Assembly (NCBI RefSeq): GCF_056712565.1
Contig: NZ_CM160072.1
Reading direction: 5' to 3' (one strand)
DNA length: 64,000 nt
Shown: piece by piece, positions 4,784-30,987 of the stretch
How the letters are laid out: every line of letters starts with the position of its first letter
Numbering within the stretch: the stretch's first letter is position 1
Translations under genes and position numbers: made by a program
The notes under the pieces: model-generated
The model's input: the letters and a program-made list of their open reading frames with translations, nothing else
Told to the model about the DNA's origin: nothing
The model's database searches: none

Positions 4784-4802
4784 TCAGGCAATCGGGGTGA
4801 AT

Positions 4803-6632
4803 GTGGCGCAGGCGGAAGTGTTGAATCTGGAGTCCGGAGCTAAACAGGTTTTACAAGAAACCTTTGGCTACCAACAGTTTCGCCCCGGCCAGGAAGAGAT
4901 TATCGACACCGTACTTTCCGGTCGCGATTGCCTGGTCGTCATGCCCACTGGTGGCGGAAAATCCCTTTGCTATCAAATCCCTGCCTTATTGCTAAACGGC
5001 CTTACCGTGGTTGTTTCACCGCTGATTTCCTTGATGAAAGATCAGGTGGATCAACTGCAAGCCAACGGCGTGGCGGCGGCGTGCCTTAACTCGACGCAAA
5101 CCCGCGAGCAGCAACTTGAAGTTATGACAGGCTGTCGCACCGGGCAAATCCGCCTGCTTTATATCGCGCCGGAACGCCTGATGCTGGATAACTTTCTTGA
5201 GCATCTGGCGCACTGGAATCCGGTGTTATTAGCCGTTGATGAAGCGCACTGTATCTCCCAATGGGGCCACGATTTCCGCCCGGAATACGCTGCCCTCGGT
5301 CAGCTGCGTCAGCGTTTTCCGACGCTGCCGTTTATGGCGCTGACTGCCACCGCCGACGACACCACGCGCCAGGATATCGTGCGCCTGCTGGGGCTGAACG
5401 ATCCGCTAATTCAAATCAGCAGTTTTGACCGTCCGAATATTCGCTACATGCTGATGGAGAAATTCAAACCGCTCGATCAGTTGATGCGTTATGTACAGGA
5501 ACAACGCGGTAAGTCGGGGATTATTTACTGTAATAGTCGTGCGAAAGTAGAAGACACCGCTGCGCGCCTGCAAAGCAAGGGAATTAGCGCGGCGGCCTAT
5601 CATGCCGGGCTGGAAAATAATGTTCGCGCTGATGTGCAGGAAAAATTCCAGCGCGATGACCTGCAAATTGTGGTGGCGACGGTGGCGTTCGGCATGGGCA
5701 TCAACAAGCCTAACGTTCGCTTCGTGGTGCATTTTGATATTCCGCGCAATATCGAATCCTATTATCAGGAAACTGGACGCGCCGGGCGTGATGGCCTGCC
5801 CGCGGAAGCGATGCTGTTTTACGATCCGGCTGATATGGCGTGGCTGCGCCGTTGTCTGGAAGAGAAGCCGCAGGGGCAGTTGCAGGATATCGAACGTCAT
5901 AAACTCAATGCGATGGGCGCGTTTGCCGAAGCGCAAACTTGTCGTCGTTTGGTATTGCTGAACTATTTTGGCGAAGGGCGTCAGGAGCCGTGCGGGAACT
6001 GCGATATCTGCCTCGATCCGCCGAAACAGTACGACGGTTCAACCGATGCTCAGATTGCCCTTTCCACCATTGGTCGTGTGAATCAGCGGTTTGGGATGGG
6101 TTATGTGGTGGAAGTGATTCGCGGTGCTAATAACCAGCGTATCCGCGACTATGGTCATGACAAACTGAAAGTCTATGGCATGGGCCGTGATAAAAGCCAT
6201 GAACATTGGGTGAGCGTGATCCGCCAGCTGATTCACCTCGGCCTGGTGACGCAAAATATTGCCCAGCATTCTGCCCTACAACTGACAGAGGCTGCGCGTC
6301 CGGTGCTGCGCGGCGAATCCTCTTTGCAACTTGCCGTGCCGCGTATCGTGGCGCTCAAACCGAAAGCGATGCAGAAATCGTTCGGCGGCAACTATGATCG
6401 CAAACTGTTCGCCAAATTACGCAAACTGCGTAAATCGATTGCCGATGAAAGCAATGTCCCGCCGTACGTGGTGTTTAACGACGCAACCTTGATTGAGATG
6501 GCGGAGCAGATGCCGATCACCGCCAGCGAAATGCTCAGCGTTAACGGCGTTGGTATGCGCAAGCTGGAACGCTTTGGCAAACCGTTTATGGCGCTGATTC
6601 GTGCGCATGTCGATGGTGACGACGAAGAGTAG
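4803..6632 (+). CDS. recQ: ATP-dependent DNA helicase RecQ
   Basis: Helicase motifs (PTGGGKS Walker A, DEAH, HRQ-Zn cysteine cluster) and C-terminal HRDC region; likely GTG start giving 609 aa. Confidence 0.95.
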
Positions 6633-11871: not shown

Positions 11872-14133
11872 ATGACAATTCTTAATCACACCCTCGGTTT
11901 CCCTCGCGTTGGCCTGCGTCGCGAGCTGAAAAAAGCGCAAGAGAGTTATTGGGCGGGGAACTCCACGCGTGAAGAACTGCTGGCGGTAGGGCGTGAATTG
12001 CGTGCTCGTCACTGGGATCAACAAAAGCAAGCGGGTATCGACCTGCTGCCGGTGGGCGATTTTGCCTGGTACGATCATGTACTGACCACCAGTCTGCTGC
12101 TGGGTAATGTTCCGCAACGTCATCAGAACAACGATGGTTCGGTAGATATCGACACCCTGTTCCGTATTGGTCGTGGACGTGCACCGACTGGCGAACCTGC
12201 GGCGGCAGCGGAAATGACCAAATGGTTTAACACCAACTATCACTACATGGTGCCGGAGTTCGTTAAAGGCCAACAGTTCAAACTGACCTGGACGCAGCTG
12301 CTGGAGGAAGTGGACGAGGCGCTGGCGCTGGGCCACAAGGTGAAACCTGTGCTGCTGGGGCCGATTACCTACCTGTGGCTGGGTAAAGTGAAAGGTGAAC
12401 AGTTTGATCGCCTGAGCCTGCTGAACGACATTCTGCCGGTTTATCAGCAAGTGCTGGCAGAACTGGCGAAACGCGGCATCGAGTGGGTACAGATTGATGA
12501 ACCCGCGTTGGTACTGGAACTGCCGCAGGCGTGGCTGAACGCATACAAACCCGCTTACGACGCGCTCCAGGGACAGGTGAAACTGCTGCTGACCACCTAT
12601 TTTGAAGGCGTAACGCCAAATCTCGACACGATTACTGCGCTGCCTGTTCAGGGTCTGCATGTCGATCTTGTACATGGTAAAGATGACGTTGCTGAACTGC
12701 ACAAGCGTCTGCCTTCTGACTGGCTGCTGTCTGCGGGTCTTATCAATGGTCGTAACGTCTGGCGCGCCGATCTTACCGAGAAATATGCGCAAATTAAGGA
12801 CATTGTCGGCAAACGCGATTTGTGGGTGGCATCTTCCTGCTCGTTGCTGCACAGCCCCATCGACCTGAGCGTGGAAACGCGTCTTGATGCAGAAGTGAAA
12901 AGCTGGTTTGCCTTCGCCCTGCAAAAATGTCATGAACTGGCATTGCTGCGCGATGCGCTAAACAGTGGTGATACGGCAGCTCTGGCAGAGTGGAGCGCTC
13001 CGATTCAGGCGCGTCGTCACTCTACTCGTGTACATAATCCGGCAGTAGAAAAGCGTCTGGCGGCGATCACCGCCCAGGACAGTCAGCGTGCGAATGTCTA
13101 TGAAGTGCGTGCTGAAGCCCAGCGTGCGCGTTTTAAACTGCCCGCATGGCCGACCACCACGATTGGTTCCTTCCCGCAAACCACGGAGATTCGTACCCTG
13201 CGTCTGGATTTTAAAAAGGGTAATCTCGACGCCAATAACTACCGCACGGGCATTGCGGAACATATCAAGCAGGCCATTGTTGAGCAGGAACGTTTGGGAC
13301 TGGATGTGCTGGTACATGGCGAGGCCGAGCGTAATGACATGGTGGAATACTTTGGCGAGCACCTCGACGGGTTTGTCTTTACGCAAAACGGTTGGGTACA
13401 GAGCTACGGTTCCCGCTGCGTGAAGCCACCGATTGTTATTGGTGACGTTAGTCGTCCGGCGCCGATTACCGTGGAGTGGGCAAAATATGCGCAATCCCTG
13501 ACTGATAAACCGGTGAAAGGGATGTTGACCGGCCCGGTGACTATTCTCTGCTGGTCGTTCCCGCGTGAAGATGTCAGCCGTGAAACCATCGCCAAACAAA
13601 TTGCGCTGGCGCTGCGTGATGAAGTCGCGGACCTGGAAGCCGCTGGAATTGGCATCATTCAGATTGACGAACCGGCATTGCGCGAAGGTTTACCACTGCG
13701 TCGCAGCGACTGGGATGCCTATCTCCAGTGGGGCGTGGAGGCTTTCCGTATCAACGCCGCCGTGGCGAAAGATGACACACAAATCCACACTCACATGTGT
13801 TACTGCGAGTTCAACGACATCATGGATTCGATTGCGGCGCTGGACGCAGACGTCATCACCATCGAAACCTCGCGTTCCGACATGGAGTTGCTGGAGTCGT
13901 TTGAAGAGTTTGATTATCCAAATGAAATCGGTCCTGGCGTCTATGACATTCACTCGCCAAACGTACCGAGCGTGGAATGGATTGAAGCCTTGCTGAAGAA
14001 AGCGGCAAAACGCATTCCGGCAGAGCGTCTGTGGGTCAACCCGGACTGTGGCCTGAAAACGCGCGGCTGGCCAGAAACCCGCGCGGCACTGGCGAACATG
14101 GTGCAGGCGGCGCAGAATTTGCGTCGGGGATGA
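11872..14133 (+). CDS. metE: Cobalamin-independent methionine synthase
   Basis: 753 aa; [22 protein letters not shown]... matches MetE. Confidence 0.97.
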
Positions 14134-14170
14134 TGAGTATTAACGAGTCATTGTAAATTGCAGTACGATA

Positions 14171-14197
14171 ATGGCTTCCAGTACTGGAAGCCATTTT
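14171..14197. terminator. Perfect 24-bp palindrome (atggcttccagtactggaagccat) plus T-run; likely metE terminator
   Basis: Inverted repeat read directly in the sequence, 38 bp after the metE stop. Confidence 0.55.
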
Positions 14198-14301
14198 GCA
14201 TGAGTGCCAGATTGAAGCAGATCTTCAGGAGTAGAAATAACCGAATCGTTTTTTTCGCAAAACACAGTTTTGAGTGATTCCGTTCAGTAATCAACGCTAC
14301 G

Positions 14302-14562
14302 TTATTTATTCTCACGTTGCACGAGATTGTATCCCTTTTCACTAACGTGGTAGTGAGGCATAGACTTATGCCCGCTATCCTCAATAATAACCAAACCTTC
14401 GTTAGCTAATTTGTTAACAATATTAACAACATTACCGAATCCTGGTATTTGCCTTATGGATAGTGTGCGATCGAGATTCATCCAGTTCCAGTTTATATCT
14501 TTCTCAGTCATAACGTTCAGCACGTTAAGTTCATTTTTAGTGATCACGATATTCTGTACCAA
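14302..14562 (-). CDS. Putative immunity protein, copy 2 (86 aa)
   Basis: Paralogue of the adjacent 85-aa ORF (shared blocks NVL.VM.EKDI.W.WM.LDRTL.IR.IP.FGNV.NIV.KL...GLV); sits downstream of the toxin domain in AT-rich DNA. Confidence 0.6.
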   Translation of the reverse strand: MVQNIVITKNELNVLNVMTEKDINWNWMNLDRTLSIRQIPGFGNVVNIVNKLANEGLVIIEDSGHKSMPHYHVSEKGYNLVQRENK

Positions 14563-14621
14563 AATTGATGAGTATCTTATTGAAAGATCACAATGTAAAT
14601 CATGCTCCTGTAATGGCTGGA

Positions 14622-14879
14622 TCAGAAGAGGTTGTCTTGTTGTTCTTTGATAAGATTCAATCCATATTGAGAAACTCTGTAGCGTGGTTTAGAGTTGCCC
14701 TCACCATTTACGATATCAACCAACCCATGATTAACCAGCTTTGTTACGATATTCGCTACGTTGCCAAATTCTGGAATATTTCGTATAGCTAAAGTACGAT
14801 CCAGCACCATCCAGCTCCAGTCAATATCTTTCTCAGCCATAACTTTCAGCACGTTAAATTCAACTATCGTAATCGTCAT
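14622..14879 (-). CDS. Putative cognate immunity protein, copy 1 (85 aa)
   Basis: Start overlaps the stop of the upstream toxin-domain ORF by 4 bp (ATGA), the classic toxin-immunity arrangement. Confidence 0.65.
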   Translation of the reverse strand: MTITIVEFNVLKVMAEKDIDWSWMVLDRTLAIRNIPEFGNVANIVTKLVNHGLVDIVNGEGNSKPRYRVSQYGLNLIKEQQDNLF

Positions 14880-16009
14880 TTTTTTGCATCCGGATGAAAT
14901 AAGTCAGTATCTTTAATTTTAAAGTCTTCTAGAGTTGCAGTATGTGCATTATTCCATAATTCATATCCATCTAAACCATTCGGTTCACCTGTTTCCCATC
15001 CTAAATTACAATAACGCTGATACTCGCGGCATTCATGAGTATAGTAGTTCAGATCGTATTTTTCAGGAAGCAATTCTTTATTTGCTATTTTTTTTAGCCT
15101 TGAAATCATTACATCATTAGCTGGATCATGATCAAATCTGGAGATATGCTTTTCAACAATAGCGATACCTTCCCTATTGATTGTTACGCCATCTATCGTC
15201 AGGTTTTCTATTGGACCACCGGCAAGGTCGGGATTAAATGGTCTTCCTGATACTGCTCCTCTGGCTCCGAAATGCTCAAATGATTCCAAATCAGGGAATC
15301 TCATTCTTCCCAGAACAACTCCAGCAACTATTGAAGCACCAGCGATGAGTAACCCTTTGTTATCCATAACTTGATCGTAACCAGCAGGTGCATCTCCTCC
15401 CAACTTGTTTGCTGTTTCCCTGAATCCTTCGATATTCCCATTGTATATGCCGCCAGCAGCAAGCAGTCTGCCAACCGCTTTACTATTGAGTGTTTTGAGG
15501 CCATTATTATCTTTAGTTTTTTGCCGTGGTATAAACAGACGGTTGTAGTTATCGGGAAATGCCAAATGACTAAATTCAGTATTAGCAATCAGATGCCTGG
15601 AGAGTATATATTCATAACTGACAGTGATGGTTTCTGTATCCAGATTGTTCTCAGTAAACAGGTGATTGATTGCTGATAAGAGCGCGCCGCGGAGTTGAAT
15701 GTTGTAATATTTCTCCTATCGACCAAATCTATTGATCCGATAGAAGTCAAACTCCATGAACAACTGCTCGTTATTGTTAATAGCGTTAATAAGTAACGGG
15801 GAGCTTTTGTCAATCAACTTACAGAAACTAAGGCCATGTAATTGTGACCCTTTGCCTGTATTCGTAATACTATTAGATAGCGAGAACGCGAAGATTTCAT
15901 CTTCATGGCCAATCTGCCAGCGATTACCTATTGATGCGCTCGTTCCGCAACGAGAGGAAATACATCCTTGTTGTTCTCCGGTTATGGTCAGGTAAATTTC
16001 ATCACTCAT
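14876..16009 (-). pseudogene. Hcp-toxin fusion (Hcp-ET-like T6SS tube protein with C-terminal extension) interrupted by an in-frame TAG
   Basis: N-terminal 97 aa (MSDEIYLTITGEQQG...GHEDEIF...KLIDKSSPLL...FYRIN) are Hcp-like; an in-frame TAG at 15716-15718 is followed without further stops by an approx. 280-aa extension (frame checked codon by codon). The 229-aa C-terminal ORF 14876-15565 is the toxin-domain portion. Confidence 0.7.
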
Positions 16010-16493
16010 CTTTGATGAACTCTCTTTATTGCTTGATGTTTTAAAAATAAACAATATTGCTATTTGTTTATAATTATTTACTCCTCAAGTTAATGGATTT
16101 AAATATGGGAAATAAAATGTTTCACTTTAGACCAGTTTTCATGAGGAAAATCTGTAATCATTAATAATAAACATGAATATTTTGCAGTGATTAATATTTG
16201 TTATGAATATAATCTATAACAATGAAGAGTTATCAGTTGTTCGGTGTATAGCCAGAGACGAGTTCAGTTTGTGATTTTTACAGGGCAGTTACAGCCGCAA
16301 AATTTTATGGCTGATTTCACCTTCCCCTCAAGCTTATCTTTCTTAAAAAGAGAAATAATTCTTAAATTCAAATAGTTATATACAATCTACTCTCTTTCTT
16401 GTGACTAGCTTCACATTTCATACTGATGCATTGGAATGAAATAAAATTTCATGAGATTTTGTGTTTGAGAAAAATTATTTCATTAGGTGTGAA

Positions 16494-17051
16494 ATGGACG
16501 CAAAGCTGTACATCACTGAGATCATCAATGAATTAACCTTCGTTAAGGACTCTATCCGTGAGGATGACTGCACCAAATTGATCGACGCTATTCAGCAAAG
16601 CCAGCGCGTTTTCTGCTATGGCCTGGGGCGTGCCGGCTTTTCCATGAAAGCCTTCACCATGCGCCTGATGCATATGGGCAAAGAGGTTTACTTCCTGACG
16701 GAAACCATTACGCCGAACTTTGGGCCTGGCGATCTGTTTATCGTTTCTTCCGCTTCCGGTGAGACAGCACAACTGGTGGCACTGGCGAAAAAAGCACGTC
16801 AGTTTGGCGGCGCTGTGGCGGTGTTAACCACGAATCGACACGCCACTATCACCGAGTTTGTCGACGTCATCGTGCAAATCAATGCCCCTTCCAAAAATCA
16901 AAAAGATTCTGTTTTCCGCTCGGCACAGCCGATGGCGTCGTTGTATGAGCAAGCTTTGCTGGTGATTGCCGATGCATTAGTGATGAAGATGGCTGCTGAA
17001 AGCGGTGCGCCGGAAAGTGAACTGTTTAAGCGCCACGCCAATCTGGAATAG
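16494..17051 (+). CDS. SIS-domain sugar-phosphate isomerase (6-phospho-3-hexuloisomerase-like)
   Basis: About 185 aa from MDAKLYITEI; SIS signatures GLGRAG and SSASGET; first gene of the PTS operon. ORF track starts 11 codons upstream. Confidence 0.7.
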   Translation: MDAKLYITEIINELTFVKDSIREDDCTKLIDAIQQSQRVFCYGLGRAGFSMKAFTMRLMHMGKEVYFLTETITPNFGPGDLFIVSSASGETAQLVALAKKARQFGGAVAVLTTNRHATITEFVDVIVQINAPSKNQKDSVFRSAQPMASLYEQALLVIADALVMKMAAESGAPESELFKRHANLE

Positions 17052-17092
17052 TCGTCGCCGTTATTTGCTCGATACCCTACAGGAGAATAAAA

Positions 17093-18601
17093 ATGAGCAA
17101 AAAAATAACATCCTTGTTTAACTTCAAGAAGTTGCAGAAATTTTCTTCTGCTCTGATGTTACCAATCGCCATTCTTCCGGCGGCGGGTTTGATTTTAGCC
17201 ATCGGGATTTCATTTAACATTGAGCTGCTGGCGAATTGCGGCGGCCTGATTTTCGCCAACCTTCCTTTGCTGTTTTGTGTCGGTATTGTGATTGGCCTGA
17301 CAGGTGATGGTTCTTCATCACTTTCAGCGATTATCAGCTACATGATCATGAATGCCACGATGGGAACGCAACTTGGCATTACCGCGGAGTCCGTTGCAGC
17401 CAGTAACGGTGACTATGCGATGATCCTCGGGGTACCGACGTTACAAACGGGAGTGTTTGGCGGTTTGATTGTCGCCATCTTTGTTTATCTGCTCTATACC
17501 CGCTTCCACAATATTGAATTGCCTCAGTTTCTTGGTTTCTTCGGTGGAAAACGCTTTGTACCGATTATTACGGCGGTGGCGGCAATTATTGTCGGCTATT
17601 TATTGCCGTGGCTGTGGATACCGGTACAAAAAGGTCTGGCGTCGCTTTCAACGCTGGTGACCAGTGGGCATAACGCGAACTTCGCGGCCTTTATTTACGC
17701 CGTTGGCGAACGTTCGCTGATTCCTTTTGGCCTGCATCATATCTGGAACGTGCCGTTTTATTACAACTTTGGCGACTACATGACCAAATCCGGGCAACTG
17801 GTGACGGGCGATATTCCGGTGTTCTTTGCCCAATTGCGCGACGGTGTTCCGTTGACGGCGGGGTTGTTTATGACAGGTCGTTTCCCAATCATGATGTTTG
17901 CGTTACCTGCCGCCGCGTTGGCGATGTATCAGGAAGCAAAACCGGAACGTAAGGCGCTGATTAAAGGCCTTTTACTCTCCGGTGCGCTGACCACATTTGT
18001 TACCGGGATTACGGAGCCGCTGGAATATGCATTTTTGTTTGCAGCTCCGGTTCTCTACATCATTCACATCTTCTTATATGCCACTTCATTTGTGCTGATG
18101 AACATCCTGAATGTGCACATTGGTCATCCTTTTGCTGGCGGTCTTATTGATTTCGTACTGAATGGCGTTATGCCAAACCGCACGCCGTGGTATCTGGTGT
18201 TCCTGGCAGGCGCGGGCTATGCAGCGATTTACTACACCGTATTTCGGGTACTGATCCGCAAGTTGAATCTGAAAACACCGGGACGTGAGGATGAAGAGAT
18301 TGCCGTTGCAACCACATTAACGCGCGAAGAACGTCCATACCAAATCATCGAGGCAGTAGGTGGTTTCGACAATATCGAAGATGTGGATGCCTGCGCAACA
18401 CGCCTGAGGCTGGCGCTGGTAGACGATAAGAAAGTGAATGAAAAACGGCTGAAGGAGTTGGGGGCTGCGGGTTTAGTGAAACTGGGTGATGGCGGTGTAC
18501 AGGTGATATTTGGCGGCAAATCGCAAATCCTGCGCGACGAAATCAAAACCGTAATGAGCAGACCGCGCCCGACAGAAATGACAGTGGCCTGTGCTAACTA
18601 A
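17093..18601 (+). CDS. PTS glucose-family EIICB component
   Basis: 502 aa; EIIC motif GITEPLEYAFLF and C-terminal EIIB domain with phosphorylatable Cys in ACATRLRL. Confidence 0.8.
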   Translation: MSKKITSLFNFKKLQKFSSALMLPIAILPAAGLILAIGISFNIELLANCGGLIFANLPLLFCVGIVIGLTGDGSSSLSAIISYMIMNATMGTQLGITAESVAASNGDYAMILGVPTLQTGVFGGLIVAIFVYLLYTRFHNIELPQFLGFFGGKRFVPIITAVAAIIVGYLLPWLWIPVQKGLASLSTLVTSGHNANFAAFIYAVGERSLIPFGLHHIWNVPFYYNFGDYMTKSGQLVTGDIPVFFAQLRDGVPLTAGLFMTGRFPIMMFALPAAALAMYQEAKPERKALIKGLLLSGALTTFVTGITEPLEYAFLFAAPVLYIIHIFLYATSFVLMNILNVHIGHPFAGGLIDFVLNGVMPNRTPWYLVFLAGAGYAAIYYTVFRVLIRKLNLKTPGREDEEIAVATTLTREERPYQIIEAVGGFDNIEDVDACATRLRLALVDDKKVNEKRLKELGAAGLVKLGDGGVQVIFGGKSQILRDEIKTVMSRPRPTEMTVACAN

Positions 18602-18651: not shown

Positions 18652-20649
18652 ATGAATTCACAATTACTGGCTAACGCCATCCGAATGTTAAGTGTTGATG
18701 CGATCCAGAAAGCGAACTCCGGTCATCCGGGCGCGCCGATGGGGATGGCGGATATTGCCGAAGTGGTCTGGCGTCGTCACCTGCGTCATAACCCAAAAAA
18801 TCCGCAGTGGTTTAACCGCGACCGCTATATTCAGTCGAACGGGCACGGTTCCATGTTGATTTACGCTTTGCTGCATCTTACAGGCTACGACCTGTCGATG
18901 GATGATATTCGCGACTTTCGTCAGCTCCACTCCCGCACGCCAGGTCATCCAGAATATGGTTATACGCCGGGTGTTGAAACCACCACCGGCCCGTTGGGGC
19001 AGGGCGTAGCTAATGCGGTGGGGATGGCGATTGCGGAGAAGGCGCTGGCGGCAGAATTTAACAAACCGGGCTTTAATATTGTTGATCATCACACATGGCT
19101 ATTTTTGGGTGATGGCTGCCTGATGGAAGGGATCTCCCACGAGGCCTGTGGTCTTGCAGGAACGCTGAAGCTCGGCAATCTGATTGCTATCTGGGACGAT
19201 AACGGTATTTCGATCGATGGTCACGTAGAAGGCTGGTTTGCTGAAGATACGGCTGCCCGTTTTCGTGCCTACGGCTGGCATGTCATTGAAGGCGTTGATG
19301 GTCACGATCCAGAAGAGGTAGATGCTGCGGTGCGTGAAGCGAAAAGCGTCACGGATAAGCCCAGTCTGCTGTGCTGCAAAACGATTATCGGTTTTGGTTC
19401 GCCAAATAAAGCCAACAGCCACGATTGCCACGGCTCGGCGCTGGGTGCAGATGAAGTGGCGCTGGTGCGTGAACGTCTGCAATGGCCGTATGCCCCTTTC
19501 GAAATTCCTGGTGAAATTTATGCCGCATGGGATGCGACCGAGAAAGGCGCGCAGGTTCAACAGGAATGGGATGCACTGTTTGCTGACTACGCGAAGCAGT
19601 GGCCGGAACTGGCGGCGGAGTTTACTCGTCGCATGAAGGGTGATTTGCCTGCTGGCTGGGCCGAGAATATGCAGAAATATGTGCACGATCTGCAATCCCA
19701 TCCGGCGGCGCTGGCAACCCGTCAGGTCAGCCAGAAATGCCTCAATCACTTCGCGGATATGCTGCCGGAACTGATGGGCGGCTCGGCGGACTTGTCGCCC
19801 TCTAACCTGACTCGCCATCAGAAATCGGTTGATTTCACCGGGGAAAATCCGGCGGGGAATTACATCTCCTATGGCGTGCGTGAATTTGGTATGTCGGCCA
19901 TCATGAACGGTCTTGCGCTGCATGGTGGGTTTATCCCTTACGGCGGTACTTTCCTGATGTTTATGGAATATGCGCGTAATGCACTGCGCATGGCGGCGCT
20001 GATGAAGATCCGCTCGGTGTTTGTTTATACCCACGATACCATCGGCCTGGGCGAAGACGGCCCGACACATCAGCCCGTTGAGCAACTGGCGTCGCTGCGT
20101 CTGACGCCGAATATGGAAACCTGGCGCGGTTGCGATCAGGTGGAAGTGGCGGTAGCCTGGCAACAGGCGATTGAGCGCAAAGATGGCCCAACGTCGTTGG
20201 TATTAACGCGCCAACCTCTGGCGCAACAGCCGCGCACCGCTGCACAGTTGGCAGAGATTGCGCGTGGTGGTTATGTACTGAGTGATTGTGACGGTCAGCC
20301 TGAGATGATCCTCATTTCTGCGGGTTCAGAGATTGAGTTAGTGGTCAGCGCCGCAAAAGCGTTAACGGAAGAAGGGCGTAAAGTTCGCGTGGTTTCCATG
20401 CCGTGTACCGAGCGTTTCGATAATCAGGATGCGGCGTACAAAGAGTCGGTATTGCCAAAAGCTGTACGCAAACGTCTGGCGGTAGAAGCCAGCATCGCCG
20501 GATTCTGGGAACGCTACGTCGGCCTGGACGGTAAAGTGATCGGCATGACGAGCTTTGGTGAGTCTGCTCCGGCGAATGTGTTGTTCAAACACTTTGGTTT
20601 TACGCCGGAAAATGTCCTGGCGCAGGCGCGTGAGCTACTGAACAGCTAA
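18652..20649 (+). CDS. Transketolase (additional paralogue, TktA/TktB-like)
   Basis: 665 aa; N-terminus ...[18 protein letters not shown] and ThDP-binding GDGCLMEG motif; clearly homologous to TktA but in an accessory context. Confidence 0.85.
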
Positions 20650-20678: not shown

Positions 20679-21524
20679 TTACCCCTTGAAACGGGAGCCA
20701 AGAAACTCTTCACGGGTGCGGTATTTCTCGTAATGCGCCTTGTTTTTATACATAAACAACAGCACCAGCATATCAATAACGCCCATTGCCGGAACGCGAG
20801 TGGAGTCGAAGGCTTCAAAGAAGATTTTATCGCTGACCGCGGTATTGAGTTGATGGGTGGAGAGTTTTGATAACGGAGATTTAATATAGTTAGTGATACA
20901 AACGGATTTGGCACCGCGCTCTTTCACCACTTTAAAGATATCGACCATTAAGTTGGTGCTGCCAGAGTTAGAAATACCAATCGCCAGGTCACGTTTCCCC
21001 ATAGAATATGCCGCATTAATTTGCATTTCCGGGCTGACGTGAACAACGGTTTTTAATCCGAGTTGGCTGAATTTATAAGCACCATAAACGGCCAGAGGGT
21101 TTGAATTTCCGGCAGCAAAAAAGAAAATAGTGTCGCAATTAGCAAGTAGTTTGAGAATGGACTCAAGCACTTCGGCATTAAAAAATTGCGTTGATTGTAT
21201 TAAATCTTCGGCCTGTTTTTTTAATAAAAATGTGGCCAGCGACGTTATATCGGTAAAATCGGTATTATCAGGATAGCTATTGTCAGGATTAATGACTTCT
21301 TTTGCTAATGCAATTTTTAAATGGTAATAACCCTGATAACCTAATTTCTTACAGGTGCGTACGATAGTCGCTTCACTGGCATGGCTTTTTTCTGATAGTT
21401 CAGTGACACTATAGTTCACGACTTCATGTGCGTGGCTAAGAATATAGTCAGCGACCTTTTTTTCCGCCTGATGCAGTGTAGGGTAATTGCTTTGAATCAG
21501 ACTTTTTACGGTTATGTTATTCAT
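20679..21524 (-). CDS. RpiR/MurR-family regulator (HTH + SIS)
   Basis: 281 aa; N-terminal HTH (LSEKSHASEATIVRTCKKLGYQGY) and C-terminal SIS domain; convergent with the PTS-transketolase operon. Confidence 0.8.
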   Translation of the reverse strand: MNNITVKSLIQSNYPTLHQAEKKVADYILSHAHEVVNYSVTELSEKSHASEATIVRTCKKLGYQGYYHLKIALAKEVINPDNSYPDNTDFTDITSLATFLLKKQAEDLIQSTQFFNAEVLESILKLLANCDTIFFFAAGNSNPLAVYGAYKFSQLGLKTVVHVSPEMQINAAYSMGKRDLAIGISNSGSTNLMVDIFKVVKERGAKSVCITNYIKSPLSKLSTHQLNTAVSDKIFFEAFDSTRVPAMGVIDMLVLLFMYKNKAHYEKYRTREEFLGSRFKG

Positions 21525-21724
21525 AATTAGTAAATTTCATTCTGACAGAAAGTGCTGATTATAACATAGTTTTCAGGCGTGGATAGGTGTGAAAAAAATG
21601 AAGGTGTGCAGTGAACGTAATGATTAACAGACCGGTTAATTTTCATGAATTACGTCAACTGCACAAAAATAATTTAAACGGGTGCTCTAATTAAAGCAAA
21701 ACTTATATTTTTATCATTGTATTG

Positions 21725-30177: not shown

Positions 30178-30987
30178 TTACTTTTTAACACCATACTGTG
30201 TAAACCATTCCAACATTCGCTGCCAGCCGTCTTTCGCAGATTCGGCATGATAGCTCGGACGATAATCGGCGTTGAACGCATGCCCTGCATCCGGGTACAC
30301 GATAATCTCTGCTTTCGCGTTTGCTGCCCGCAGCGCCTGGCGCATCGTTTCCACGCTCTCTTGCGGAATGCTGTTATCCTGGCCGCCATATAAGCCGAGA
30401 ACCGGAGCGTTAAGATCGGTTGCGATATCAACAGGTTGTTTCGGTGAATTCAGCGACTTATCGCCCGTCAGTTTGCCGTACCACGCCACTGCGGCTTTTA
30501 GCTGTGGATTATGCGCGGCATACAGCCAGGTGATACGTCCACCCCAGCAGAATCCGGTGATCATTAAACGATGAACATCGCCGCCGTTGCGGGAAGCCCA
30601 ACTGGCGACATGATCGAGATCGGCCAGCACCTGCGAGTCAGGCACTTTTGCTACCAGACCGCTAAGCAACGTGGGGATATCGGCAAAATCATTCGGATCG
30701 CCTTCGCGGAAGTAAAGTTCAGGTGCGATAGCCAGATACCCCTCCAGCGCCAGACGGCGACAAATGTCGCGGATATGTTCATGCACGCCAAAAATTTCCT
30801 GCACTACAATGACCACTGGCAGTGGGCCATCGCTTTGCTTTGGTCTGGCATGGTAAGCAGGCATGTTATCCCCTTGTGAAGGGATAGAGGTGAAGCCCGC
30901 CACAATCGCGTCGTCCGGAGTCTGAACGATGGTCGAAGCGAGAGGCGATGCAGCAGGTGCAAATCCAGATTGTTGTGTTGTTGCCAT
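30178..30987 (-). CDS. ysgA: Dienelactone hydrolase family protein YsgA
   Basis: From MATTQQSGFAPAA... (269 aa); alpha/beta hydrolase with GFCWGG nucleophile elbow. Confidence 0.88.
   Translation of the reverse strand: MATTQQSGFAPAASPLASTIVQTPDDAIVAGFTSIPSQGDNMPAYHARPKQSDGPLPVVIVVQEIFGVHEHIRDICRRLALEGYLAIAPELYFREGDPNDFADIPTLLSGLVAKVPDSQVLADLDHVASWASRNGGDVHRLMITGFCWGGRITWLYAAHNPQLKAAVAWYGKLTGDKSLNSPKQPVDIATDLNAPVLGLYGGQDNSIPQESVETMRQALRAANAKAEIIVYPDAGHAFNADYRPSYHAESAKDGWQRMLEWFTQYGVKK

Follow-up and report, generated by a model that had tools for sequence, protein, structure and literature searches.

We consider it probable that the 484-bp spacer between tssD and hxlB is a composite junction within the known tkt1 island, at the metE-ysgA hot spot of phylogroup-B2 Escherichia coli, and not a single regulatory unit. 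An earlier note on the same stretch of DNA (64,000 nucleotides of contig NZ_CM160072.1, hereafter the window) had treated the spacer as one promoter unit; it is instead the junction of three pieces of different origin. The classes of matches found in complete genomes, together with the breakpoints between them, lead to the conclusion that the tkt1 'island' consists of two independently distributed modules, one carrying an Hcp-toxin gene and the other the hxlB-ptsG-tkt1 operon, and that the spacer is the place where they meet. In acquired islands, divergent spacers rich in A and T are to be expected; the present one matters little in itself and belongs, as a junction with a regulatory part, to the ordinary features of a known island. 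What the analysis corrects is the published picture of the island as such, and what it adds is a short, conserved stretch in front of hxlB that may control the operon.

Locus and limits of the spacer

The interval 14000-17200 is 100% identical to the chromosomes of E. coli S88, APEC O1, ATCC 11775 and other phylogroup-B2 strains, and the window is, to judge from its sequence, a phylogroup-B2 E. coli chromosome. Gene coordinates are those of the RefSeq annotation of S88, mapped onto window positions. Downstream of metE (11872-14133, plus strand) lie two small hypothetical, immunity-like genes on the minus strand (14302-14547 and 14622-14879), which are paralogues of each other with about 77% DNA identity. 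The second of them overlaps by 4 nt the 3' end of tssD (14876-16009, minus strand), a pseudogene for an Hcp protein with a C-terminal extension (Hcp-ET type). On the far side of the spacer the plus strand carries hxlB (16494-17051), coding for an HxlB-like SIS isomerase, ptsG (17093-18601), coding for a glucose-family PTS IIBC protein, and the transketolase gene tkt1 (18652-20649), all three assigned from RefSeq, domain matches and Li et al. (2012). They are followed on the minus strand by a gene for a MurR/RpiR-family regulator (20679-21524), whose product has HTH_6 and SIS domains, and, from 30178, by ysgA, also on the minus strand.

The spacer thus sits inside the tkt1 island, the insert between metE (which ends at 14133) and ysgA. 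Li et al. (2012; BMC Microbiol 12:51) described it in APEC O1 as a tkt1 genomic island of 16 kb, flanked by metE and ysgA, in which the fragments of the Hcp-toxin gene were entered as three hypothetical ORFs; in a later report (PLoS One 2026) the same island is GR29 of strain BEN2908. The characteristic gene set of the island, i.e. tkt1 with the genes for PTS IIBC, a sugar isomerase and a regulator, is present in the window. K-12-type genomes are without the island, and among 5426 complete E. coli genomes the spacer occurs in 460 and the operon promoter in 1134. On this distribution the locus is horizontally acquired, being present in only part of E. coli, and the published island together with this partial presence bears out the proposal of horizontal acquisition made in the earlier note.

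The spacer of about 400 bp that had been reported at 16055-16460 is real, but its limits were off, as the bounds of open reading frames (TTG 16054 and GTG 16461) had been used. In the RefSeq annotation the real start codons are ATG 16009 (minus strand) for tssD and ATG 16494 (plus strand) for hxlB. The match to a TssD model starts with residue 1 of the product beginning at ATG 16009, and that to an HxlB model with residue 8 of the product beginning at ATG 16494. The true intergenic spacer is therefore 16010-16493, 484 bp long with 28.1% GC. Both start codons face it, and the divergent geometry described earlier stands.

The extreme A/T-richness was likewise upheld. The interval 16055-16460 has 28.6% GC compared to 50.9% for the window, which puts it within the bottom 0.1% of windows of 406 bp. 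Of the 21 annotated intergenic regions that reach 60 bp or more (mean 43.2% GC), none is longer or richer in A and T than the spacer 16010-16493. TpA steps are doubled (0.095 in the spacer, 0.044 in the window). The spacer forms the end of a larger AT-rich patch, 14134-16493, in which 2.36 kb with 37% GC lie between genes of 51-55% GC. Promoter-like hexamers of the -10 type, and pairs, are 4-5 times denser in the spacer than on average in the window; AT-rich DNA yields such matches by chance. Phased A/T tracts, which had also been claimed, were not found. AA/TT/AT dinucleotides and the centres of A/T tracts were subjected to Fourier analysis against 500 dinucleotide-preserving shuffles, and the power at 10-11.5 bp was no higher than in the shuffles, of which a fraction of 0.29-0.86 reached the observed value, for the whole spacer as well as for each of its three parts. 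No Rfam 15 covariance model matched 13900-17200 on either strand at E <= 1, and there were no terminators in 15900-16600.

Three segments of the spacer

The mosaic structure became apparent when the 484-bp spacer was queried by sensitive search against the 5426 complete genomes. It was recovered at full length with 99-100% identity in the 460 genomes mentioned above. In 672 genomes (e.g. ST131), which are without the Hcp module, only 16378-16493 was matched, with about 94% identity, and in 363 genomes without the tkt1 island only about 16039-16202, with about 72% identity. Pairwise BLAST located the breakpoints at 16202/16203 and 16377/16378.

The first segment (16010-16202, minus strand, 23% GC) travels with the Hcp-toxin module. 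Its homology to the tssD-ysgA spacer of genomes lacking the island ends at 16202 and amounts to about 72% identity, rising to 76% if 70 nt from the start of tssD are counted in. Presumably it holds the tssD promoter and leader. We propose that it would be the native upstream DNA of an orphan Hcp-ET module, the gene of which was later killed by a nonsense mutation in this lineage. At the other end, the third segment (16378-16493, plus strand) is the hxlB-proximal control region and travels with the hxlB-ptsG-tkt operon, being the part retained at 94% identity in the 672 genomes.

The middle segment (16203-16377, 33% GC) is an orphan, restricted to genomes in which the arrangement is exactly the one seen here. 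It had no E. coli match beyond the 460 genomes with the full spacer, no match in the locus of ST131 (L002), in the loci with the Hcp module only (L003, L004 and L016) or in plasmids, and an exact-pattern scan of gut metagenomes placed 12 of 12 matches in the same context. Comparison with the tssD-ysgA spacers of L004 and L016 or with the left end of the ST131 locus was not significant (local-alignment p about 0.04 and 0.99). The segment may be filler of obscure origin, remaining where the Hcp module and the hxlB-ptsG-tkt1 module were joined.

A function for the middle segment, as a distal promoter giving tssD a leader of about 285 nt, as a small RNA or as a 43-aa ORF at 16244-16375, appears very unlikely to us. 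It is true that the top sigma-70-like match of the whole spacer in a promoter scan, TTGAGG-18-TAAAAT directed toward tssD (16331-16302, minus strand), falls in this segment, and that more than 99% identity is retained in some 460 genomes. The genomes that retain it nevertheless make up one recent clade, and with no homologue elsewhere there is no conservation signal; the promoter-like match, lying as it does in orphan DNA, cannot be checked by conservation and is of the kind that arises by chance in AT-rich DNA. The segment has no Rfam match and no terminator-like site.

The gene content of other strains agrees with two separate modules. In ST131 the hxlB operon follows directly after metE and the Hcp gene is absent. 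In O145:H28 and others (L003, L004 and L016) the interval from metE to ysgA holds an Hcp-toxin gene and the small genes downstream of it, and the tkt1 island is absent. The Hcp module is thus found alone in these three loci, the operon alone in L002 and L014, and both are also found together. The locus L014 is on a divergent Escherichia-like contig, with an HxlB 90% identical to that of the window, and has an ST131-type left end beside metE. Because of this divergent example, the arrangement with the operon only looks like the older state.

The Hcp-toxin gene and H-NS

The gene beside the PTS operon had been called a toxin gene. It is indeed of the Hcp-toxin type, but in the window it is a pseudogene, interrupted by a single in-frame TAG at 15716-15718. 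The affected codon, number 99, is TGG (Trp) in intact alleles, and the difference maps to 15717. This stop is common to the window, S88 and CFT073, and RefSeq annotates an 'internal stop' in the latter two. Read in this way, tssD is a pseudogene in S88, CFT073 and APEC O1-type strains, and the toxin gene next to the operon is dead in them, though intact in some relatives. Intact tssD occurs without the tkt1 island in L004 and L016, and with the island, in the same arrangement as here, in L018; the joining of the two modules is therefore older than the inactivation.

The Hcp domain spans residues 1-147 of 377, and the C-terminal extension of about 230 aa has no family match in Pfam or NCBIfam. 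The two small genes at 14302-14547 and 14622-14879 have no match in these databases either, and the immunity role is ascribed to them because they are located downstream of an Hcp-toxin gene.

Promoters in both directions had been expected in the spacer. For the plus strand, cross-genus conservation points to an operon control region, confined to about 16395-16493 (see below), whereas the tssD promoter was not located. Upstream homology among Hcp modules is limited to 193 bp with roughly 72-76% identity, and within these common 193 bp there is no conserved -35/-10 pair. A 28-nt direct repeat is present at 16153-16210. A Fur box was considered at this repeat and dismissed, as about 10 of 19 positions match by eye, which is the chance level in AT-rich DNA.

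The earlier note had also suggested H-NS silencing. AT-rich acquired DNA is reportedly subject to xenogeneic silencing by H-NS and StpA (Navarre 2006; Lucchini 2006), and traits of such DNA are present here in the form of markedly low GC (28% over 484 bp and 37% over 2.36 kb) and presence/absence polymorphism. A high-affinity H-NS motif is reported to have the sequence tCGATAAATT (Lang et al. 2007); no match to this motif, searched as TCGATAAATT, was found within 2 mismatches in 16010-16493. Neither such a motif nor phased A-tracts are obligatory for H-NS binding. A comparison can be drawn with CFT073, which carries the present spacer with two substitutions and has another orphan Hcp-toxin locus, c0132, between aroP and pdhR, with an upstream spacer of 30% GC and a patch of 41% GC. 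In published H-NS/StpA ChIP-seq of CFT073 (Hustmyer et al. 2022), H-NS is bound at this other Hcp-toxin gene as well as at its immunity genes, the IP/input values being 19-52. By analogy with this locus, and from base composition, H-NS occupancy of the spacer is plausible, and we hold it to be likely. The 2.4-kb AT-rich patch 14134-16493 is the kind of DNA that H-NS and StpA would coat, and H-NS would probably dampen the tssD side and spurious promoters.

It is a different matter whether the whole spacer of about 400 bp is one curved, H-NS-silenced divergent promoter, in which nucleation on phased A-tracts leads to repression of the toxin gene and of the PTS operon alike. We hold this to be possible but rather doubtful. 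The very low GC, the horizontal acquisition, the elevated density of -10-like hexamers and the H-NS binding of the comparable locus in CFT073 would all suit it. The A/T tracts, however, have no helical phasing and the spacer no high-affinity motif; the three pieces differ in ancestry; and the toxin gene that would be silenced is already dead in this lineage. Moreover, the elements on the plus side are short and specific in sequence, and they have been kept in genera whose surrounding DNA differs.

The probable operon control region and its relation to known systems

Orthologues of the hxlB operon were gathered by protein search and contig look-ups. A scan of species-representative contigs with HxlB gave two loci only, because the E. 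coli representative is without the island. The orthologues compared were Klebsiella-like (L006, L008, L009 and L020, with HxlB 79-81% identical), Serratia-like (L010 and L012, 71-76%), the divergent L014 (90%) and ST131. Their upstream regions align only over the last 100-145 bp or so before the hxlB ATG, and nothing upstream of about 16345-16395 aligns among these orthologues, in which HxlB is 71-90% identical. Within the aligned part three blocks are kept at fixed spacing across genera, namely a CRP site and two further elements, Box A and Box B.

The CRP site (16400-16415, plus strand) is a perfect consensus, TGTGA-N6-TCACA, and the only exact match in the 64 kb; TGTGA-N6-xCACA is retained in 7 of the 8 aligned orthologues. 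Box A (16436-16452, plus strand) is a perfect 7-3-7 palindrome, ATGAAAT-AAA-ATTTCAT, the sole match with zero mismatches in the window. Wherever the DNA in front of an orthologue is intergenic, the block GAAAT-N3-ATTTCATGA of Box A is retained, and the TAnnAT hexamer within the box (16442-16447), kept in nearly all orthologues, is the best candidate for a -10 element. Box B (16467-16487, plus strand), likewise conserved across orthologues, reads GAGAAAAATTATTTCATTAGG and overlaps the Shine-Dalgarno sequence (GAGG). It is a second copy of (A/T)TTATTTCATGAG, 31 bp after the first, or 30 bp in the ancestral allele and in most sequences. By this conservation the plus-strand region 16395-16493 or so looks like a catabolic promoter with a CRP site and a specific operator, not like a diffuse AT-rich zone.

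CRP-activated, repressor-controlled promoters for sugar and PTS catabolism are well known from Enterobacteria. The consensus site may likewise subject the hxlB-ptsG-tkt1 operon to catabolite control by cAMP-CRP, with Box A overlapping the likely -10 element and Box B lying 30-31 bp downstream over the ribosome-binding site. Activation by CRP and the positions of the two transcription starts are predictions at this stage. Measured from the centre of the CRP site, the candidate -10 begins 34.5 bp further downstream, which would place CRP near -46. Canonical centres are at -41.5 (class II) or at -61.5, -71.5 etc. (class I), and as -46 fits neither class, the -10 element lies elsewhere or CRP acts unconventionally. 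A position weight matrix (PWM) scan gave, for the plus side, TTCATA-19-TAAAAT with a poor -35, and a strict promoter scan of the spacer returned 1 site, compared to 3.4 in shuffled sequences. No genome-wide lists of transcription starts for Nissle, CFT073 or UTI89 were found in a literature search. Two other assignments were rejected: a sigma-54 promoter at the conserved TGG 16432-16434, which by eye has no GC at the -12 position, and a NagC/Mlc-type site, the consensus of which appears to differ in half-site orientation and spacing.

The boxes have the character of operators, as the palindromic Box A and Box B overlap the likely promoter or leader and both are conserved across genera. We infer that they serve as operators at which a repressor responsive to sugar phosphates would occlude RNA polymerase until an inducer appears, and the most likely repressor is the RpiR-family product of the gene behind tkt1. 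E. coli and the Klebsiella-like L006 and L020 have an RpiR-family gene in linkage with the operon. In L008, where the boxes are kept, no RpiR gene was seen in the DNA examined. The Serratia-like L010 and L012 also keep the boxes and have no RpiR gene within about 3 kb upstream or within the downstream sequence covered (3 kb in L010 and 1 kb, to the contig end, in L012); instead, an SgrR-like gene lies upstream. A PWM search for further copies of the boxes, covering the rest of the window and the DNA in front of rpiR in E. coli and Klebsiella, yielded weak matches only. Because of the Serratia-like loci without an RpiR gene and the lack of a box upstream of rpiR, the assignment to RpiR is tentative.

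The boxes could also act in the mRNA leader, with Box A (AUUUCAUGA) pairing to Box B and the Shine-Dalgarno sequence (UCAUGAGGU) and so sequestering the ribosome-binding site, which would mean translational control of hxlB. RNAalifold does predict a 9-bp helix between the boxes, formed in most orthologues, and 16430-16510, folded as a single sequence, exceeds shuffled sequences somewhat in stability (z = -2.25). The covariation term (+0.08 kcal/mol) is, however, practically nil, a double change being present in one pair only, and the pairing follows automatically from the repeated, self-complementary TCATGA core. The helix is AU/GU-rich and weak. The mechanism also requires Box A to be part of the transcript, although this box holds the best -10 candidate. 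We find such a mechanism improbable and prefer to see the boxes as DNA operators.

Variation within E. coli is concentrated in Box B. Haplotypes were counted by exact matches over 16425-16505 in the 1134 genomes carrying the operon promoter. The ancestral form (A4, G16467 and G16484), which is also that of ST131 and L018, is the commonest (658 genomes), followed by forms with an extra A at 16470 (266), with the extra A and T16467 (130, among them CFT073 and Nissle) and with the extra A and T16484 (39, among them the window, ATCC 11775 and the S88/APEC O1 lineage); the other haplotypes account for 41 genomes. Three derived and nested mutations, at 16467, 16470 and 16484, thus segregate in B2 lineages, those at 16467 and 16484 being G to T changes. 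They are the only polymorphisms common to several of the compared sequences, the rest of the spacer being more than 99% identical. All three fall inside the 21-bp Box B, one of them being slippage in a run of A and the sample being clonal, and they are at most a hint of either regulatory tuning or relaxed constraint. A stronger proposal, that an uncharacterised repressor responsive to sugar phosphates has its operator in the two boxes and that the Box B mutations are adaptive, retuning the operon in major B2 pathogen lineages, we regard as unlikely.

The tkt1 operon has been reported as a virulence and fitness locus of APEC, and its putative control is here narrowed to about 100 bp with a CRP site and two conserved boxes. 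Such a compact region provides a defined target for reporter and binding work and for finding the inducer of the operon.

The control region resembles known CRP-activated PTS promoters in its consensus CRP site, which precedes the first gene of the PTS operon by about 85 bp, in the palindromic boxes between this site and the start codon, and in the linked gene for a SIS-domain regulator; it differs in that the distance from the CRP site to the candidate -10 is outside class I and class II. The 2.4-kb patch of 37% GC, in an accessory island flanked by genes of 51-55% GC, resembles acquired DNA silenced by H-NS, from which the spacer departs in having neither the high-affinity motif nor A-tract phasing. 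[quoted passage not shown] 2017, reviewed in PMC6730261). It shares with them the N-terminal Hcp domain, the extension of about 230 aa, the duplicated small downstream genes and an orphan position away from the T6SS cluster. The toxin and immunity roles are putative here, and the module differs in that its C-terminal domain is outside the named Pfam and NCBIfam toxin families and that its gene is a pseudogene in the window.

The tkt1 island of ExPEC is the very same locus, found in B2 strains and with the same genes (SIS isomerase, PTS IIBC, tkt1, RpiR, LysR and others). In those portions of the published accounts of the island available to us we found no mention of a two-module mosaic, of the pseudogene, of the spacer or of its control elements. 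As far as these portions go, Li et al. (2012) and the BEN2908 paper handle the island as a single unit, whereas in the present analysis it is made up of two modules.

Allelic variation in Box B

Box B, the second conserved box upstream of hxlB, spans 21 bp (16467-16487) and overlaps the Shine-Dalgarno sequence. In B2 lineages it carries three derived mutations, which are nested and all fall inside the 21 bp: an extra A at 16470, a G to T change at 16467 (the CFT073/Nissle type) and a G to T change at 16484, found in the window and in S88. Among the 1134 genomes carrying the operon promoter, 658 had the ancestral haplotype and 266 the extra A, while the extra A was combined with T16467 in 130 and with T16484 in 39; the other 41 had different haplotypes.

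The Hcp-toxin gene and its neighbours

The Hcp-toxin gene tssD (14876-16009) is a pseudogene in the window and intact at L016:2501-3634. The C-terminal ~230 amino acids of its product (residues ~150-377) had no family match in Pfam or NCBIfam, which leaves the toxin without an assigned type and distinct from the domains named Hcp-ET1-5. Downstream of tssD lie two small paralogous genes (14302-14547 and 14622-14879), ca. 77 % identical in DNA over 124 nt. No family match was found for either, and presumably they are immunity genes that arose by duplication. Between them and the convergent metE lies a perfect palindrome with an 11-bp stem, AATGGCTTCCAGTACTGGAAGCCATT (14170-14195), followed by TTTGC, which is probably a bidirectional terminator.

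Insertion sequences in the Hcp module are a second way in which this locus decays. In O145:H28 (L003:4034-5248) an IS3 element interrupts tssD, and at another Hcp-module locus (L019:2733-3430) an IS1 element is located in the tssD-ysgA spacer, ~100 bp upstream of tssD.

Other low-GC regions and database records

Among the intergenic regions, the spacer upstream of the RpiR-family regulator gene (21525-21724, 31 % GC) ranks second in AT content. The motif common to Box A and Box B was not found there beyond weak, half-site-like matches (e.g. 21637-21649). A second low-GC patch, between corA and rarD (731-2073), contains two minus-strand genes annotated as DUF943 and YPO3983 family members. Within this patch and close to it (793-2109) there are several sites that nearly match the high-affinity motif of H-NS.

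The recQ gene (4797-6632) is an uninterrupted ORF of 611 codons in the window, whereas the RefSeq record of S88 marks it as 'frameshifted'; either the window derives from a different strain of the S88 clade or the S88 record differs locally. A contig labelled Chryseobacterium sp. (CACSKA010000003.1) holds an enterobacterial-type hxlB-ptsG-tkt-rpiR module, with HxlB 79 % and RpiR 83 % identical to those of E. coli, and the assembly looks mislabelled or contaminated.

Edges of the tkt1 island

In ST131 the tkt1 island has at its left end, directly past the metE terminator, a 24-bp copy of the ysgA 3' end (L002:5833-5856, corresponding to 30189-30212 in the window). A short piece of the target thus flanks the island as a direct repeat, whereas Li et al. 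(2012, BMC Microbiol 12:51) reported that there was no such repeat.
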